Source: an uncultured Alphaproteobacteria bacterium (GTDB lineage: Bacteria; Pseudomonadota; Alphaproteobacteria; JAPULJ01). From it: a stretch of DNA of 64,000 nucleotides. Shown here piece by piece: positions 58,089-64,000 of this stretch (the stretch's first letter is position 1; each line of letters begins with the position of its first letter). The stretch covers positions 911 through 64,910 of the forward strand of contig CAZBRE010000004.1 of assembly GCA_964494065.1 (NCBI GenBank), given 5' to 3'. The translations under genes and the position numbers were made by a program. The notes under the pieces are model-generated. The model had not been told where the DNA came from, made no database searches, and saw only the letters and a list, made by a program, of their open reading frames with translations.

Positions 58089-60362
58089 CTATTTCCCTGG
58101 CGCGAGCTTGGTCTTGTGCGGGAAGGCCTTGCGCACCGTCTCCATGCGGAACGGCACGTGCACGTACTCGCCCTTGAGCCAGAGCGGCACCTGGTCGGTG
58201 AAGTTGGCCGAGTTGAACCAGCCGTCCTGGCCGCCCAGCAGCGTGAACCAGTTGGCATCCGGATCGGACAGATCGGAGATGTGCCGCGCGTTGGAGCCGA
58301 AGCGCGCGGGATGGCGCTCGTCGGTCGTGCTGTGCGCCGTCTTCCAGAGCGTGTCGTTCGAGCCCTCGGCCGGCGCGTCGACGAAGCGGAAACGGCTGCC
58401 GATCACCGGCAATCGGCCGAGCGGATGGTTGACCACGAGGCGATGGAAGGCGCCCCAGTTCTCGAAGCCGTCGAACTTGGCGGCGGCCGCCGTGAGCGCG
58501 GCTTTGAGATCGGCGGCGAGCGCCGTGTCGTCGGCGCGTTCGATATCCTGGGCGAGCAACGCCTTGTTGCGCGACTGGCCGGCGAGAACGGCCGCGACCT
58601 CGGGCGCATAAAGCCGCTTGCGCAGCGCTGTTGAAAGGTAGTGATGCACGAGCTCGAAGGCGACGGCGCCGCGCGAGGCCGTGCTGTAATGGCCGTCCCA
58701 GTCGCGGAACGCCTTGAGCAGCGTCACCTCTTGCGCGCTCAACCCCTTGGCGACGCCGAGGGCGTCGATCCTGCCCGCGATCAAGTCGCGCAGCTTGACC
58801 GCCGAGATGAGATAGACGTCGCGCTGCACGGCCCGGAGCGCCGCGAGGTCGATCTTGCCCGTCCCCGTCATCAGCGCCGCCATGCGCTTCACCCGATCGT
58901 CGGTGGAAAAGAAATAGCCGATCGGCACGGCCGCCGGGGCGGGCCGGTTGTTGGCCGAGGCGAGGAAGCCGATCTTGGGGTTGTAGCTCACGGGCAGGTC
59001 GAGGACGTTCAGGAAGCCGTGCCAGGTGTCGCGCGGATCGGTGGGATCGAGGACGATATCGCGCGGCCTTGTCTCGCGGCGCACCGGCAGGCGGATCGCC
59101 ATCAGCTGGCCGATATTCCCGTCGACATCGGCGTAGAGCATGTTCTGGGCGGAGACGGCGAACGTCTTGAAGGCGGCGCGGAACTCATCCCAGTTGCCGG
59201 CGCGCTGGACCTTCAGAAACGCCGTGATCTCGTCACTACCGTCATGGCCGACCCAGCGCAACGCGAGCGGCCCGTCACTACCGGCATTCAGCAAGGGCGC
59301 ATCGCTGATGATCGGGCCAACGGGGGTGGTCCGTACCGTGACCCGCGTGTTGCGCCACCAGCGGACGCGGATCGTCTCCTCGCGGGACTTGATCTCGCCC
59401 GGCTTGAACTTGGCGGCGTCGTAGAGGTCGGACGAAGCCGCCCGCATATTGGTGCCGCCCCAGGCGATGCGCTCGTTGCGGCCGAGCGCGACGAAGGGAA
59501 TGCCCGGCACCATCAGGCCGACGGCATGGACGTTTGGCGACTTGATGCCGGCGATCAGCCACAGGTTCGGCAGCATGATCCCCAGATGCGGGTCGTTCGC
59601 CATCAGCGCAGCGCCGGTCTTGGTGCGCGCGCCCGCGACCGCGAGCGAGTTGCTGCCCGAGCGGCTCATGCCGCGCAATATGTCGTCGAGCGCCGCCTGC
59701 TTGCCGTCGGGCCGGAAGCTCGCCATCGAATCGCCGCCGTTCTTGACCAGACGCGCCCAGAGCTCCGGCCAGTCCTTGCGCTTGCGAAGCTTCAATGTGG
59801 AGAACCAGACGAGCCAGTTGACATCGGTCGAGGCGAGCCGGCCGATCGTCAGCACGTCGCGGATCGTCCAGGGCTCGCGCTCCAGGCCGAGGATGCGGTA
59901 TTCGGCGGGCAGGACTTTCGCCGTCTTCTGATAGTGGTTGATGCCGGCGACGAAGGCCGTGACCCAGGCCTTGGTCTCGGGCGGCATCGCCGCCTCGCTC
60001 GCCTCGGCCGCCTTGGCGTAGTTGAGGATGCGCAGGCTGTGGTCGATCTCGGTGGCGAGCGGCCCCGCCATCTCCGAGATGCGGCCCTGCGAGATCCGGC
60101 GCATCAGCTCCATCTGCCCGAGCCGCAGATGCGCGTGGACGAGGCCGAGCGCGAAGGCGAGGTCGGCGTCGTTCTGCGCCTCGATGAAGGGGATCGCGTG
60201 CGCGTCCCAATGGATCGTGACCGGGGCCTTGAGCGGCAGGCCTTCGGTCGGGAACATGGCGAGGCGCTGGCCGATATCGGACTTATTCGGCAGCGGCGAA
60301 AGCACGGCGCAGCCGACGAGAAGCGAGCTGATCATGGAGAGAGCTAGGGCGCGGAGGGGCAT
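58089..60362 (-). CDS. Penicillin acylase family protein (Ntn-hydrolase; possible AHL acylase), lipoprotein
   Basis: Lipobox LLVGC after ATG 60362. Penicillin-amidase-family length and motifs (ANDPHLG...GRNERIAWGGTN). Confidence 0.8.
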   Translation of the reverse strand: MPLRALALSMISSLLVGCAVLSPLPNKSDIGQRLAMFPTEGLPLKAPVTIHWDAHAIPFIEAQNDADLAFALGLVHAHLRLGQMELMRRISQGRISEMAGPLATEIDHSLRILNYAKAAEASEAAMPPETKAWVTAFVAGINHYQKTAKVLPAEYRILGLEREPWTIRDVLTIGRLASTDVNWLVWFSTLKLRKRKDWPELWARLVKNGGDSMASFRPDGKQAALDDILRGMSRSGSNSLAVAGARTKTGAALMANDPHLGIMLPNLWLIAGIKSPNVHAVGLMVPGIPFVALGRNERIAWGGTNMRAASSDLYDAAKFKPGEIKSREETIRVRWWRNTRVTVRTTPVGPIISDAPLLNAGSDGPLALRWVGHDGSDEITAFLKVQRAGNWDEFRAAFKTFAVSAQNMLYADVDGNIGQLMAIRLPVRRETRPRDIVLDPTDPRDTWHGFLNVLDLPVSYNPKIGFLASANNRPAPAAVPIGYFFSTDDRVKRMAALMTGTGKIDLAALRAVQRDVYLISAVKLRDLIAGRIDALGVAKGLSAQEVTLLKAFRDWDGHYSTASRGAVAFELVHHYLSTALRKRLYAPEVAAVLAGQSRNKALLAQDIERADDTALAADLKAALTAAAAKFDGFENWGAFHRLVVNHPLGRLPVIGSRFRFVDAPAEGSNDTLWKTAHSTTDERHPARFGSNARHISDLSDPDANWFTLLGGQDGWFNSANFTDQVPLWLKGEYVHVPFRMETVRKAFPHKTKLAPGK

Positions 60363-60505
60363 GGATAGTCTATCCGGTCGGCTGGGTAGGCTGGCGGGAC
60401 TAGACGGGCGCGTACAAAACACGCGTTCTCGATAGATAGGTCGGCCTTTCGGGTGCCGCCAGCGTTGGATACGCTCGCACGAGCAGATAAGCGACGGACA
60501 AGGGC

Positions 60506-60973
60506 ATGCCAAATGACAAGCTGGTGATCGACGGCCTGGACGGGTTCCGAGCCCTGGTGGGGAAAACGGTCGGGCCCTCGGATCCGGTCGAGGTGACGCG
60601 CGAGCGCATCGAGCATTTCTGCCGCGCCGTCGACAACGACGAGTGGACCCATTGGGACTTGGAGCGCGCCGAGGCCTCGCGCTTCGGCACGCTGATCGCG
60701 CCGGCCATGTTCACCGCCGCCTACTTCCCGCGGCTCCAGTTCGACATGATCGAGATCCGCAACGTGCCCACCTTCCTGATCCAGGGGGCGGAGGGCATCC
60801 GGCTCTTCTCGCCGCTCAAATGCGGCGAGCGCTTCATCATGAGCTTCACCATCGCGGCGGTCGAGGAGCGCGCGAACGGCATCGCGGTCCGCTACGACGC
60901 GCGCTTTTCCCGCCCCGGCGAGGACGAGCCCTTCGCGCTGGCGAGCTTCATCATCCGGTACCTGGAGGATTAG
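60506..60973 (+). CDS. MaoC-like (hotdog) dehydratase N-terminal-domain protein
   Basis: 155-aa hotdog-fold protein with a FAS1-like dehydratase pattern. Confidence 0.65.
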   Translation: MPNDKLVIDGLDGFRALVGKTVGPSDPVEVTRERIEHFCRAVDNDEWTHWDLERAEASRFGTLIAPAMFTAAYFPRLQFDMIEIRNVPTFLIQGAEGIRLFSPLKCGERFIMSFTIAAVEERANGIAVRYDARFSRPGEDEPFALASFIIRYLED

Positions 60974-61150
60974 CGCCGGGCCGCGCCGCCCGAATGCCCC
61001 CCATGCAATCAGTTTTTACGATCATGGTGGTTTTTCACTGACCGCGCGGTTAATATATAATAGAGGCATCCGAGGGTGGCCGGATTGGCATGGACCGGCG
61101 CCCCGCGCGGCTCGATTGGACGCCGCGCCAGACAGCCAGGGACGGAAACG

Positions 61151-62125
61151 ATGGCAGAAACTGCGGTTGAAAGCGCCGAAGCGGCCGGCGACGTCGAAGC
61201 GGTCAAGAGCGCGACCATGGCCAAGATCCAGGCCGGCGAGCTGATCGAGGACCTTGAAGAGGTCTTTCCCGATTATCGCAACGCGCTGGTGCAGACGCTG
61301 ACGATCGCCGCGCAATCGGAGGTCACGGTGCTGACCTGGGCCTACACGGCCTACCGCACCTGCCCCGATATCGGCGCCAAGGTCGCGGTCTCGGCAACGA
61401 TCCAGGACGAGGTCGGCCACGCGCACCAACAGGGCATGCTGCTCGAGCGCTTCGGCGTCTCGATGCGGGAGAAGACGTTCGACATCGCGCCGGAGACGAT
61501 CAAGACGCTGATGATCATGCAGTTCGAGCTCAAGAACTATTTCGAGTTCCTGGTCTCGCAGTGCTTCCTCGACCGCGCCGGCCGCATCACCACGCGCGAC
61601 GTTGAGCTCAACTGCTCCTTTGCGCCCTATCGCCGCTCGCTGCGCAAGATCAACTTCGAGGAGCAGTTCCATGTCGGCCACGGCGAGCAGTGGGTGAAGT
61701 TCTACGCCGAGTACTCGCCGGAGACCCGCGCGGCGGTGCAGAAGGCGCTCGACTGGATGTTCCCCCACGGCGTCACCTGGTTCGGCCTGCCCGACCGCCT
61801 GAAGCACCGAAAGGGCCAGCTCGACTTCAAGGTGCGCGGCTGGTCGAACGATACGATGCGCGAGATGTGGCTGCAGTCGGCGTGCAAGTTCGCCGCCGAG
61901 GTGGGGCTCGACGTGCCGGCGCATTACGACGAGGAGCAGGGCAAGTACGTGCTCGACTGCCCCTTTCCGATGATGTGCGACGTCGAGAAGCGCGAGTGGA
62001 TCTGGGAAGAGGCCGACTGGAAGGACACGATCAACCAGCTCAAATACGACGGACCGATGAACCCTTACGCGCATGCGCGGCTGCAAAGCGAGGTCTGGGG
62101 GGACGAGTTGTGGAAGGAGGACTGA
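61151..62125 (+). CDS. PaaA-like ferritin-fold diiron oxygenase subunit (aryl-CoA epoxidase alpha-like)
   Basis: Aligns with E. coli PaaA across the diiron helices (FPDYRNALVQ...IQDEVGHAHQQG vs MPDAYRKTLI...VQDEAGHGLYLY). Confidence 0.75.
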   Translation: MAETAVESAEAAGDVEAVKSATMAKIQAGELIEDLEEVFPDYRNALVQTLTIAAQSEVTVLTWAYTAYRTCPDIGAKVAVSATIQDEVGHAHQQGMLLERFGVSMREKTFDIAPETIKTLMIMQFELKNYFEFLVSQCFLDRAGRITTRDVELNCSFAPYRRSLRKINFEEQFHVGHGEQWVKFYAEYSPETRAAVQKALDWMFPHGVTWFGLPDRLKHRKGQLDFKVRGWSNDTMREMWLQSACKFAAEVGLDVPAHYDEEQGKYVLDCPFPMMCDVEKREWIWEEADWKDTINQLKYDGPMNPYAHARLQSEVWGDELWKED

Positions 62126-62430
62126 CCGCCGCCGTCCGCGAGGCGCTCGCCCTCGTCAAGGACCCGCATATGGATGTGGGGCTGAGCGATATGGGCATGC
62201 TGCGCGAGGTGACCGTCAGCGCGCAAGGCGCGGTGACGGTGGCGATCGTCTATCCCTGCATGGGTTGCCCCGCCTACGAGATGATCCAGTGGGACATCAA
62301 GAAGCGGGTCGGCGCGATCGAGGGGGTGACGGGGGTCAAGGTGAAGATCGCCTGGGGCGAGAAATGGCAGAAGTCCGACATCGCCCCCTGCGCCCGCGAG
62401 CATGTGAAGGATTACGGGTTCCAGATCTAG
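62110..62430 (+). CDS. DUF59 / PaaD N-terminal-domain-like small protein
   Basis: VKDPHMDVGLSDMGML...YPCMGCPAYEMI matches the PaaD N-domain (DPEIPVLTITDLGMV...TYSGCPATEHL). Start uncertain: GTG 62110 after a GGGGGA RBS, or ATG 62170. Confidence 0.55.
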   Translation: MEGGLTAAVREALALVKDPHMDVGLSDMGMLREVTVSAQGAVTVAIVYPCMGCPAYEMIQWDIKKRVGAIEGVTGVKVKIAWGEKWQKSDIAPCAREHVKDYGFQI

Positions 62431-62685
62431 GTGGGAGGCCAGGAAGTGAGCGAACGCGTCCTCGAGCCCGATACAGAGCTTTACGAGGTCTTCGGCCGGC
62501 ACCGCATCGACGGGCGGCTGGAGCATCTGGGCACGCTGAGCGCGCCAAACCGCGATCTCGCATTGGCGCGGGCCCGGCTCATCTACTCCGAGCGCGAATG
62601 GATCGAGATGACGATGGCGCCGGCCGATGCCTTCGAGCGGGTCATCGGCCGGCCCGATCCGGGCTCGGCGGTGGGCTTCGCATGA
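62431..62685 (+). CDS. PaaB-like small subunit
   Basis: LYEVFGRHRIDGRLEHLGTLSA...ALARARLIYSEREW aligns with E. coli PaaB (LYEVFVRSKQGLSHRHVGSLHA...ALENARDAYTRRSE). GTG start at 62431 or 62446. Confidence 0.6.
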   Translation: MGGQEVSERVLEPDTELYEVFGRHRIDGRLEHLGTLSAPNRDLALARARLIYSEREWIEMTMAPADAFERVIGRPDPGSAVGFA

Positions 62686-62906
62686 TGGGTGACGCCAAGA
62701 CTAGAGCCGCGAAGGACCGGGAGGCCGACAAGCCCACCCAAGTCAGGTCAGATGGCGTCTTCCGCGACAAGTACGACATGACGGTCGAATGCCCGTGGTG
62801 CGGCTCGACCGACAACACGGTCCACAATCCCTTCGGCGGCACCGTCTCGGAGATCGCTTTCGAATGCGCGAGCTGCGGCAACCCGTTCGGCTGGATGAAA
62901 TGGTAG
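62682..62906 (+). CDS. Zinc-ribbon small protein, PaaD C-terminal-domain-like
   Basis: ECPWCGSTDN...FGGTVSEIAFECASCGNPFGWMKW parallels the PaaD C-terminus (CPRCGSTDT...FGSTACKALYRCDSCREPFDYFKC). Confidence 0.55.
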   Translation: MMGDAKTRAAKDREADKPTQVRSDGVFRDKYDMTVECPWCGSTDNTVHNPFGGTVSEIAFECASCGNPFGWMKW

Positions 62907-62934
62907 CGGCGGAGAAGAGACGAGGGAGCGCGCG

Positions 62935-63786
62935 ATGGATCTGACCCCTGACGTCAAACAGGCGCTGCGCGACGAGCTCGTCACCATCGCCGACTGCAAA
63001 TGGGTGCTGGGCCACTGGTACATCAAGGTGATGCGGAACGGCCGCGGGCTGCAGGACTTCACGTCCATGGCGGCGATGGCGCAGGATGTGCTCGGCCATA
63101 CGCGGGCGCTCTTCAAGTTCCTGGAGGACGTGTTCGACGAGCCCGAGGGCGCGCTCGAATTCGGCCGCGGCAAGGACGAGCTGCACGCGATGAGCCTGCT
63201 CGACGCAGCACCCGAAAGCTGGGGCGACTATGTCGGCACCGTCTTCATGGCCGAGGCCGCGATCGCCGAGCTCGTCGAAACGCTGAAGGGCGGCGCCTTC
63301 GAGATCGCCCAGCCGTTGCTCGAGCAGATCGCGGTGGAGAGCGAGTTCCACCTCCTTTGCGCCAGCGGCTGGCTCAAGAGCTTCAGCGAGGCGGACCGCG
63401 ACGGCCTCAAGGCCGCGCTGCCGGGCCGCATGAAGCAGACCGTCGCCTGGTTCGGCCATGACGCCGAGGCGGCGGACGACGTATTGCTCAAGGAGGGCAT
63501 CCGCACGAAGAGCGTCGCGGAGGCGCGCGCCTCCTTCATCGATAGCGCGCTGCCCAAGCTCGCGGCGGATGCGGGGCTCGATGCCTCGGCGGTCGCGGGC
63601 GCCGGCGAGGCCCGTCCGGGTCCGAGCTGGGATCCGGTGCTACGGCGCGAGCGCGACCACGTCTTCTCCCCCGACATGTGGGAATTCATGGTGCCGACCA
63701 ACGAGGACGCCGTCCTTGCGCGCCGCCCGCTGGCGATCAGCGTCGGCGACAATGTCGGGCCGGTCGCGGTGAAGGCGGGGCGGTAG
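62935..63786 (+). CDS. PaaC-like ferritin-fold subunit
   Basis: N-terminal pattern ALRDELVTIADCKWVLGHW...DVLGHTRALFKFL resembles PaaC (TLRLGDNCLVLSQRLGEW...DLLGQARNFLSYA). Confidence 0.6.
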   Translation: MDLTPDVKQALRDELVTIADCKWVLGHWYIKVMRNGRGLQDFTSMAAMAQDVLGHTRALFKFLEDVFDEPEGALEFGRGKDELHAMSLLDAAPESWGDYVGTVFMAEAAIAELVETLKGGAFEIAQPLLEQIAVESEFHLLCASGWLKSFSEADRDGLKAALPGRMKQTVAWFGHDAEAADDVLLKEGIRTKSVAEARASFIDSALPKLAADAGLDASAVAGAGEARPGPSWDPVLRRERDHVFSPDMWEFMVPTNEDAVLARRPLAISVGDNVGPVAVKAGR

Positions 63787-64000
63787 GGCAAGCATGTGCT
63801 TTCAGTCGATCACTTACTTAATCAGCAATCGAGATTGCATTACCCAAAAGTTCATATAATCACTTACAGTTGAAAAAAGCGCTAGATTGAGCTCATAAAT
63901 AGACTGAGTAGCAGCAGCCGCTCACACGTGCTTTACGTAGCGTGGGTGCCGATATTGCCGGCTGTTCGACCGATTGCCGCAATTGGTACGGTGTTTCGGT

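Follow-up and report, generated by a model that had tools for sequence, protein, structure and literature searches.

The phenylacetyl-CoA epoxidase PaaABC(D)E of Escherichia coli and Pseudomonas is one of the closest known counterparts of the system analyzed here. Its PaaABC oxygenase core assembles as (PaaACB)2, and PaaD is a SufT-like protein that is needed in vivo and dispensable in vitro (PMC4498308, PMC9493321), which is why it is presumed to act in maturation or metal insertion. Among the epoxidase components, PaaD alone is still enigmatic. In its canonical form it is a single polypeptide of ~165 amino acids (aa) in which a DUF59 domain is followed by a four-Cys zinc ribbon. A PaaD divided between two genes is known at the database level from haloarchaea, for which NCBIfam holds models of a DUF59-only PaaD (NF041868) and of a 56-aa zinc ribbon named 'PaaE' (NF041869). 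We analyzed a 64,000-nt stretch of alphaproteobacterial DNA (hereafter referred to as the window). Positions 61151–63786 of its forward strand carry five co-directional, tightly packed genes for relatives of PaaA, PaaB, PaaC and both halves of PaaD. The genes are designated, in their order along the DNA, A, DN, B, DC and C, where DN is the DUF59 protein corresponding to the N-terminal half of PaaD and DC is the zinc ribbon corresponding to its C-terminal half. We consider it likely that they form one intact operon and encode a PaaABC-type diiron oxygenase with a CoA thioester as its substrate; the enzyme would belong to a distinct and widespread clade without a linked reductase and would obtain electrons from an unlinked donor. 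The features that set this variant apart are a split PaaD, relocated small genes, a truncated PaaB and a missing PaaE.

Organization of the five-gene cluster

The coordinates of the five genes and of adjacent features are listed in Table 1. The DN gene begins with a GTG codon and overlaps the 3′ end of A by 16 nt. A GGAGG sequence is located 7 nt upstream of the B start at 62446; an alternative GTG start at 62431 would yield a product of 84 aa. The ATG codon of DC overlaps the stop codon of B (ATGA, 62682–62685). These arrangements, like the presence of a MaoC-like gene beside the cluster, agree with a preliminary description of this DNA, which had reported five co-directional Paa-like genes with PaaD in two open reading frames (ORFs) separated by a PaaB-like gene. 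The GC content at third codon positions (GC3) is 0.84–0.91 in all five genes (0.84–0.89 in the three small ones, DN, B and DC) compared to an overall GC content of ~0.65, which is the signature of genuine genes in this genome. Independent gene calls in a 90%-identical metagenome contig (L001; loci used for comparison are labelled in this way throughout) gave the same products of 106, 79, 74 and 283 aa.

The 177 nt that separate A from the MaoC-like gene include an AT-rich patch with the promoter candidate listed in Table 1, and because of this σ70-like match the five genes may have a promoter of their own. The scan with the promoter pattern gave two overlapping matches against 0.5 expected, a result that reflects similarity to the consensus and is not functional evidence.

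Table 1. Features at the distal end of the window
Feature	Position	Strand	Product and matches
Penicillin-amidase (Ntn hydrolase) family gene	58089–60512	−	PF01804 E 1.6e-159
MaoC/HadA-like hot-dog protein	60506–60973	+	155 aa; PF13452 E 5.3e-12, PF01575 E 1.2e-7
σ70-like promoter candidate	61032–61061	+	TTTTCA, 18-nt spacer, TATAAT; consensus match
PaaA-like diiron subunit A	61151–62125	+	324 aa; PF05138 E 1.7e-35
DUF59 protein DN	62110–62430	+	106 aa; PF01883 E 1.7e-16
Short PaaB-like protein B	62446–62685	+	79 aa; PF06243 26.9 bits
Stand-alone four-Cys zinc ribbon DC	62682–62906	+	74 aa; PF23451 E 5.8e-15
Putative PaaC-like structural subunit C	62935–63786	+	283 aa; PF05138 E 3.4e-16, 59.7 bits
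AT-rich tail without synteny with relatives	63787–64000		GC 0.34 at 63801–63900

Subunits A, B and C

All five proteins score far under the cut-offs of the curated NCBIfam models of PaaA to PaaD. Protein A belongs to the PF05138 (PaaA_PaaC) superfamily (123 bits, threshold 28.5); its score against the PaaA equivalog model TIGR02156 is 99.9 bits, below the cut-off of 280, and its alignment to E. coli PaaA yields 48 bits. Residues E57, E87, H90, D141, E171 and H174 of A are invariant in 15 diverse members of the clade. They align with E42, E72, H75, D126, E155 and H158 of E. coli PaaA, which we take to be the six iron ligands seen in its published structure. The best matches of the AlphaFold model of A (pLDDT 87.1) in the PDB were PaaA chains (3pwq, 4iit and 3pw8; TM 0.78–0.84 over ~309 columns), followed by PaaC, SSO1313 and BoxB. 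The modelled fold of A is that of PaaA.

Protein C also passes the PF05138 threshold. It scores 28.2 bits with the PaaC equivalog model TIGR02158 (cut-off 133) and matches E. coli PaaC in a BLASTP comparison with an E-value of 1e-5. Val occupies the place of the ligand Glu of A (E87) in the motif QDVLGH of C, so that its set of diiron ligands is incomplete, as in PaaC. An exact-sequence look-up of the C protein returned no record, and homologues with 90% and 70% identity were taken instead.

The relationship of B to PaaB required profile comparisons. Against PF06243 the protein scores just below the gathering score of 27 and covers profile positions 3–43 of 89; against TIGR02157 it scores 26.3 bits (E 5.9e-6; cut-off 85.45). 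When a profile of 22 B-like proteins was compared with solved structures, only PaaB matched (4iit_B, E 5.8e-7; 3egr_A, E 1.3e-6), and hhalign paired the B family with residues 5–64 of the 95 residues of E. coli PaaB at 95% probability. From these matches we conclude that B is a true PaaB relative that lacks the C-terminal third. The preliminary description had already called it C-terminally short, correctly, as B matches only residues 6–62 of 95 in PaaB. The AlphaFold model of B, based on an alignment of six near-identical sequences, had a pLDDT of 52.7, too low for a fold search. A word-indexed homologue search with the 79-aa B returned five close matches, which bear the source name hypothetical or, once, 'PaaB subunit'.

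Another NCBIfam model, TIGR04031 ('Htur_1727 family rSAM-partnered candidate RiPP'), gives short B-like proteins scores similar to or higher than those of the PaaB model; for B of the window, the two matches are about equally weak. Such TIGR04031 matches were seen in the window (62446–62685) and in loci L087 (8271–8537), L088 (8241–8435) and L007 (11263–11520), and the Agrobacterium B-like protein scored 35.3 bits with TIGR04031 versus 28.0 bits with PaaB. The presumed 'RiPP precursor' family may be a family of PaaB-fold proteins, or else its model may be contaminated by such proteins.

By analogy with the (PaaACB)2 assembly, A would be the catalytic diiron protein, C its non-catalytic structural partner and B a bridging subunit, the three together forming the oxygenase core.

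The two halves of PaaD

In the PaaD model TIGR02159, which has 146 positions and a cut-off of 108 bits, DN covers positions 1–88 (56 bits) and DC covers positions 98–144 (36 bits), so the two proteins together correspond to one canonical PaaD. The same correspondence is seen in direct comparison with E. coli PaaD, residues 19–108 of which align with DN (32% identity, E 2e-11) and residues 125–163 with DC (38% identity, E 9e-9). Thus, the small ORFs are related to PaaD, as had been proposed for them; unlike the canonical protein, they are two genes with B between them. A Cys-Pro motif is conserved in DN. Each of the four Cys residues of DC (CxxC...CxxC) is at least 90% conserved, and the same four are present in the fused E. 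coli PaaD. A word-indexed search with the 74-aa DC found ten close matches, named at source either 'hypothetical' or 'transcription elongation factor Elf1'. DN scored 66.8 bits with the haloarchaeal model NF041868 (paad_haloarch, cut-off 180) and DC scored 28.2 bits with NF041869 (cut-off 100). DN and DC share the two-gene split with the haloarchaeal proteins but are distinct orthologous groups. As two polypeptides, they would share the presumed role of PaaD in maturation or metal insertion. A clade in which the domains are separated is a natural dissection of PaaD, since each half could be deleted or purified alone to learn which one the oxygenase needs.

The small genes could, in principle, be remnants of one frameshifted or decaying paaD around a spurious PaaB-like ORF, or chance ORFs: high-GC DNA in this region yields many long spurious ORFs, and B is 0.1 bit short of the PF06243 gathering threshold. 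We give this explanation practically no weight. Conserved residues of DN, B and DC are retained in separate ORFs in 84 loci (described below), down to ~37% identity of A, and the three genes use different frames and overlaps; conservation of this kind refutes an artefact and rules out a single frameshifted paaD. In addition, the GC3 values of the three small genes are those of real genes, independent gene callers predict the same products in L001, and the homology of B to PaaB, significant at the profile level (4iit_B), is not spurious.

Distribution and history of the gene order

One genome per species was scanned, and at least 518 species contained a relative of A. The best 80 loci from these species, together with four metagenome contigs, made up a set of 84 loci, which were analyzed with 10-kb flanks. 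ORFs were classified by hidden Markov models (HMMs) built from the window proteins and ordered by their stop coordinates. PaaD is encoded as two genes in 84 of 84 loci, and the B-like gene is kept in all of them except one that is cut off at a contig end. The order of the window, A-DN-B-DC-C, was found in 33 loci and in one truncated locus. The sister order, A-DN-B-C-DC, accounts for 44 of the 84 loci: 22 have it in this form, and another 22 contain an extra DUF59 gene upstream (DN-A-DN-B-C-DC). Six loci were either truncated at a contig end or had no zinc ribbon detected after C (L048 and L082); the ribbon gene is lost, distant or unannotated in the latter two. Counted among the Gemmatimonadota and Longimicrobiales loci (L051–L081), 25 clusters of the sister order, or 26 with the truncated L050, have a second DUF59 gene directly upstream of A. 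No CoA ligases were found in the Gemmatimonadota and Longimicrobiales neighbourhoods, which contain instead an MBL-fold hydrolase, PFK, a PLP decarboxylase and an Rce1-like protease.

When a neighbour-joining tree of A was rooted on E. coli PaaA, the loci with the window order formed a monophyletic group (35/35) that is nested within the A-DN-B-C-DC clade and whose nearest neighbour is Mycobacterium sp. SM1. Given this nesting, the simplest history of the window order would be a single move of the ribbon gene from a position after C to a position before it. Proteins A of the window-order clade are at least ~51% identical to A of the window. The clade consists mainly of marine Gammaproteobacteria (Halieaceae, Luminiphilus, Halioglobus and other Pseudomonadales) and also includes some Alphaproteobacteria and Burkholderiales; the closest genome is that of a soil alphaproteobacterium assembled from a metagenome (L005, 88% identity in A). 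The sister order is found in Bacillaceae, Thermus, Chloroflexota, Gemmatimonadota, Acidobacteriota, Actinomycetes, Bradyrhizobium, Agrobacterium and haloarchaea. A search of a representative library with A returned 322 matches at E ≤ 1e-3, 20 of them at E ≤ 1e-30, a count that says little about abundance because clustering at 50% identity compresses the clade.

RefSeq annotates the genes of these clusters in Halalkalicoccus, Agrobacterium and Thermus as 'Phenylacetic acid catabolic protein', 'metal-sulfur cluster assembly factor' or 'hypothetical protein', or leaves them unannotated. The preliminary description had suggested that the architecture might be undescribed. To the extent that our literature search found neither a description of the split layout nor a characterised member, and that the small genes pass as hypothetical, this suggestion holds. 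Its novelty is partly reduced by the recurrence of A-DN-B-DC-C, within a single clade, as a common arrangement seen in 33 other loci, by the wide spread of the sister order and by the NCBIfam models of haloarchaeal split PaaD; the latter, however, represent neither the order of the window nor its clade.

Electron supply

All ORFs of 40 aa or more, both in the window and in the 84 loci, were searched with E. coli PaaE by phmmer. There was no match in the window, in line with the reductase gene having been reported as missing, and only one in the 84 loci, an ORF of L034 located 8 kb upstream of the cluster. The missing linked reductase is therefore a property of the clade and not an effect of the window edge. 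The same ORFs were searched with a 2Fe-2S ferredoxin from Halalkalicoccus, and no separate ferredoxin was found among them, the only match being the L034 ORF that also matches PaaE. The sole candidate electron carrier seen beside any cluster of the clade is a divergent 93-aa 2Fe-2S ferredoxin on the Halalkalicoccus jeotgali B3 plasmid (L086, 5889–6170), ~800 bp upstream of A and separated from it by a GNAT acetyltransferase gene. Electrons would come from an unlinked ferredoxin/reductase system encoded elsewhere.

It is also conceivable, though in our opinion unlikely, that the free ribbon itself binds iron and, as a rubredoxin-like carrier, takes the place of the ferredoxin domain of the missing PaaE between a general NAD(P)H reductase and the diiron centre. 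The four highly conserved Cys residues would suit such a function, a stand-alone ribbon is paired with the absence of a nearby PaaE in every locus examined, including L089 with its canonical gene order, and NCBIfam names the haloarchaeal ribbon 'PaaE'. However, the same four Cys residues occur in the fused E. coli PaaD, which coexists with PaaE, and Pfam classifies the domain as a zinc ribbon. Moreover, the ribbon is lost, distant or unannotated in L048 and L082, and the correlation between the split and the absence of PaaE could reflect shared ancestry alone.

Genomic context and candidate substrates

Among the 34 window-order loci, the most frequent neighbour is a MaoC/HadA-like protein (28 loci), followed by an AMP-forming ligase (23), an acyl-CoA dehydrogenase (18), AraC (15) and TetR (14) regulators, a family III CoA-transferase (13), an SCP-x-type thiolase (10) and DUF35 (9). 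The thiolase and DUF35 are often accompanied by a HadA/HadB-like MaoC pair. The ligases linked to the clade are FadD8-like or generic acyl-CoA synthetases and not PaaK or benzoate-CoA ligase. In the alphaproteobacterial relatives closest to the window the neighbours are an aldehyde dehydrogenase, one or two MaoC proteins, a short-chain dehydrogenase/reductase (SDR), a ligase and a branched-chain-type ABC importer, while Thalassotalea sp. HSM 43 (L090) has three acyl-CoA dehydrogenases and AraC regulators.

The MaoC-like protein of the window has HadA as its best NCBIfam match, and HadA is presumably the non-catalytic partner in HadAB. The canonical catalytic Asp of the hydratases is replaced by Asn in its motif FCRAVDNDEWTHWD. 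MaoC-like proteins of L001–L035 have Asn or Gln for this Asp and Trp for Pro (FCxxxxNxEWxHWD versus GDxNPxHxD in (R)-hydratases). Comparison of L005 (9670–10037) with the window (60366–61197) shows that L005 has no MaoC-like gene between the amidase gene and A; hence, MaoC is dispensable or has been lost in at least one lineage.

No PaaK, PaaG, PaaZ or PaaJ was found among the surveyed genes of the window or the conserved neighbours of the window-order clade. This, together with scores far under the TIGR cut-offs and a different set of conserved partners, makes a substrate other than phenylacetyl-CoA plausible, and the enzyme probably acts on such a substrate. Its assignment to the CoA-thioester-dependent diiron oxygenases would follow from homology to PaaA and BoxB and from the neighbouring genes of CoA metabolism. 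The thioester would be made by a linked ligase or CoA-transferase, and the product would be processed by enzymes of the hot-dog-fold, acyl-CoA dehydrogenase and thiolase types instead of PaaG, PaaZ and PaaJ. The partner genes point to a catabolic route for an organic acid outside the canonical phenylacetate pathway. The preliminary description had likewise proposed a substrate other than phenylacetyl-CoA; the proposal is retained, but not the island rich in aryl/acyl-CoA ligases that had been, besides the MaoC gene, its basis. The ligases of the window are of the generic fatty-acid type and stand among beta-oxidation and housekeeping genes: the first 24 kb (1–24 kb) encode a LeuC-like aconitase, Ffh, FtsY, a MiaB-like radical SAM protein and PGK, and an ordinary beta-oxidation set (ligase, acyl-CoA dehydrogenase, FadB-like protein, thiolase and TetR) is located at 32–43 kb. 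An aryl-CoA island is thus ruled out.

The cluster might alternatively encode a divergent but isofunctional phenylacetyl-CoA 1,2-epoxidase, in which case the adjacent penicillin-amidase-family enzyme would free phenylacetate from amides. The amidase-family gene, which is divergent from the MaoC-like and oxygenase genes, adjoins the cluster in the window and in L001, L002 and L005. Its linkage is confined to these near-identical lineages (82–88% nucleotide identity) and for this reason is not independent evidence. Some sister clusters do lie beside genes of phenylacetate type: PaaX at the trusted cut-off, three PaaF/G-like crotonases, a thioesterase, an aldehyde dehydrogenase and a benzoate-CoA-ligase-family enzyme in Neobacillus, a PaaI thioesterase in Agrobacterium, and crotonases with an aldehyde dehydrogenase in Thermus. 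In addition, a survey of 2026 (PMC13186573) described modules termed 'partial multicomponent (PaaA-PaaC only)' in association with phenylacetate-CoA ligase, in all Halobacteria as well as in Bacilli, Clostridia and Deinococci. Finally, the aldehyde dehydrogenase of L003 was matched best by models of betaine-aldehyde and phenylacetaldehyde (StyD) dehydrogenases, with no PaaZ-type match listed. Set against this are the absence of a PaaK-type ligase, PaaG, PaaZ and PaaJ noted above, the FadD8-like or generic character of the linked ligases, and the distance of A from PaaA both in the equivalog score and in the alignment with the E. coli protein. On balance we think an isofunctional epoxidase unlikely.

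The neighbouring aldehyde dehydrogenase and MaoC genes in L003 and L091 may represent a 'split PaaZ'; the dehydrogenase, however, scores as a generic or StyD-like enzyme, and the MaoC-like protein has no catalytic Asp.

Several observations weigh against the assignment of the window cluster to a CoA-thioester oxygenase with an unlinked electron donor. In the literature, we found no biochemical data for any member of the clade. Specificity for a CoA ester is deduced from the homology with PaaA and BoxB and from neighbour genes. The neighbours themselves vary: acyl-CoA dehydrogenase, CoA-transferase and thiolase/DUF35 in marine Gammaproteobacteria; aldehyde dehydrogenase, MaoC and an ABC importer in Alphaproteobacteria; and, in the window, only MaoC and the penicillin-amidase-family gene. 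As these sets differ between sublineages, one single substrate cannot be deduced from them.

In abundant marine bacteria, the window-order clade is linked to CoA-ligase, CoA-transferase, acyl-CoA dehydrogenase, MaoC and thiolase-DUF35 genes, and for this reason it may mark a still uncharacterised, possibly new CoA-dependent route of oxidative catabolism. A bolder proposal, which we regard as speculative and rather improbable, is that the clade is an unrecognised CoA-dependent oxygenase that takes part in a beta-oxidation-like pathway and whose substrate, perhaps an alicyclic, branched or aryl-alkanoate one, is not phenylacetate, with the freed ribbon having acquired a role of its own, such as rubredoxin-like electron delivery or the docking of a general reductase. 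Were it true, the role of the ribbon would explain why the loss of PaaE is always paired with the split of PaaD, and a pathway of this kind would be common among marine Halieaceae, further Pseudomonadales and certain Alpha- and Betaproteobacteria from soil.

Other genes near the cluster in the window encode a FadD/PimA-like ligase, ChaC, DsbA, an SDR and a DUF3775 protein. In the closest relatives, a GH3-family adenylating enzyme is encoded a few genes downstream of the cluster. The synteny that connects the window with L001, L002 and L005 extends exactly as far as the stop codon of C (63786–63788): at this position, the relatives carry a ParE/RelB toxin-antitoxin pair, GH3 and Dus, and the window continues into unrelated DNA, the last 200 nt of which are AT-rich, as reported earlier. 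Positions 63787–64000 matched none of the fetched loci and look like a variable region or insertion hotspot. A tRNA gene serving as an integration site at the AT-rich end was considered and ruled out, since no tRNA was found. Elsewhere, the window contains genes for a GGDEF-EAL protein, a xanthine-dehydrogenase-family molybdoenzyme, a tannase and esterases.

Comparison with known systems

The window cluster and the E. coli and Pseudomonas PaaABC(D)E systems share the A, B, C and D families, tightly coupled small genes in one operon, the six diiron ligand positions in A, a presumably non-catalytic C and the PaaA fold (TM ~0.8). They differ in gene order, which is A-B-C-D-E in the latter and A-DN-B-DC-C in the window. 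In the window, furthermore, PaaD is two polypeptides, PaaB is without its C-terminal third, PaaE and the pathway genes for PaaK, PaaG, PaaZ and PaaJ are absent, and every subunit is far under the TIGR equivalog cut-offs. BoxAB, the benzoyl-CoA epoxidase, is likewise a diiron enzyme that epoxidizes the ring of a CoA thioester and comes from the same structural superfamily, BoxB being a weaker fold match to A than PaaA. Unlike the window system, BoxB consists of one large subunit, has BoxA as its dedicated reductase and lacks B, C or D partners.

Many marine gammaproteobacterial loci with the window order recall the hydratase/aldolase and thiolase modules of the ChsH1-ChsH2-Ltp2, BbsAB or IpfDE type, in that an SCP-x-type thiolase, DUF35, a HadA/HadB-like MaoC pair, an acyl-CoA dehydrogenase and a family III CoA-transferase are encoded beside the oxygenase. 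This gene set is absent from the window itself, and none of the three characterised systems is known to use a PaaABC-type oxygenase.

The haloarchaeal type represented by NCBIfam models NF041867, NF041868 and NF041869 is similar to the window cluster in having a DUF59-only PaaD, a separate ribbon of ~56–68 aa and no FNR-type PaaE nearby. In its example from a Natribaculum luteum plasmid (L089), however, the order is canonical (A-B-C-DN-DC), PaaB is of full length (100 aa), and PGAP gives A and C the names paaA and paaC. With the haloarchaeal models, the scores of the window proteins stay well under the cut-offs.

The A-DN-B-C-DC sister clusters share with the window the split PaaD, the short PaaB-like protein, the absence of PaaE and the same clade of the tree. 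Examples are found on the H. jeotgali B3 plasmid NC_014298, Agrobacterium pAtCG920 and Thermus thermophilus pHB5018c, as well as in Neobacillus bataviensis, Bradyrhizobium and Gemmatimonadota. Their A proteins are 35–49% identical to A of the window, their zinc-ribbon gene follows C instead of preceding it, and the genes around them are in many cases of a paa-like kind (PaaX, PaaI, crotonases, aldehyde dehydrogenase and a benzoate-CoA-ligase-family enzyme). Since surveys of paa genes with standard HMMs would miss the short PaaB-like and ribbon genes, they would call clusters of this kind partial. Our analysis suggests that at least some of the 'PaaA-PaaC only' modules are full five-gene systems, whose small subunits escape the standard models, and the five-gene reading corrects such calls.

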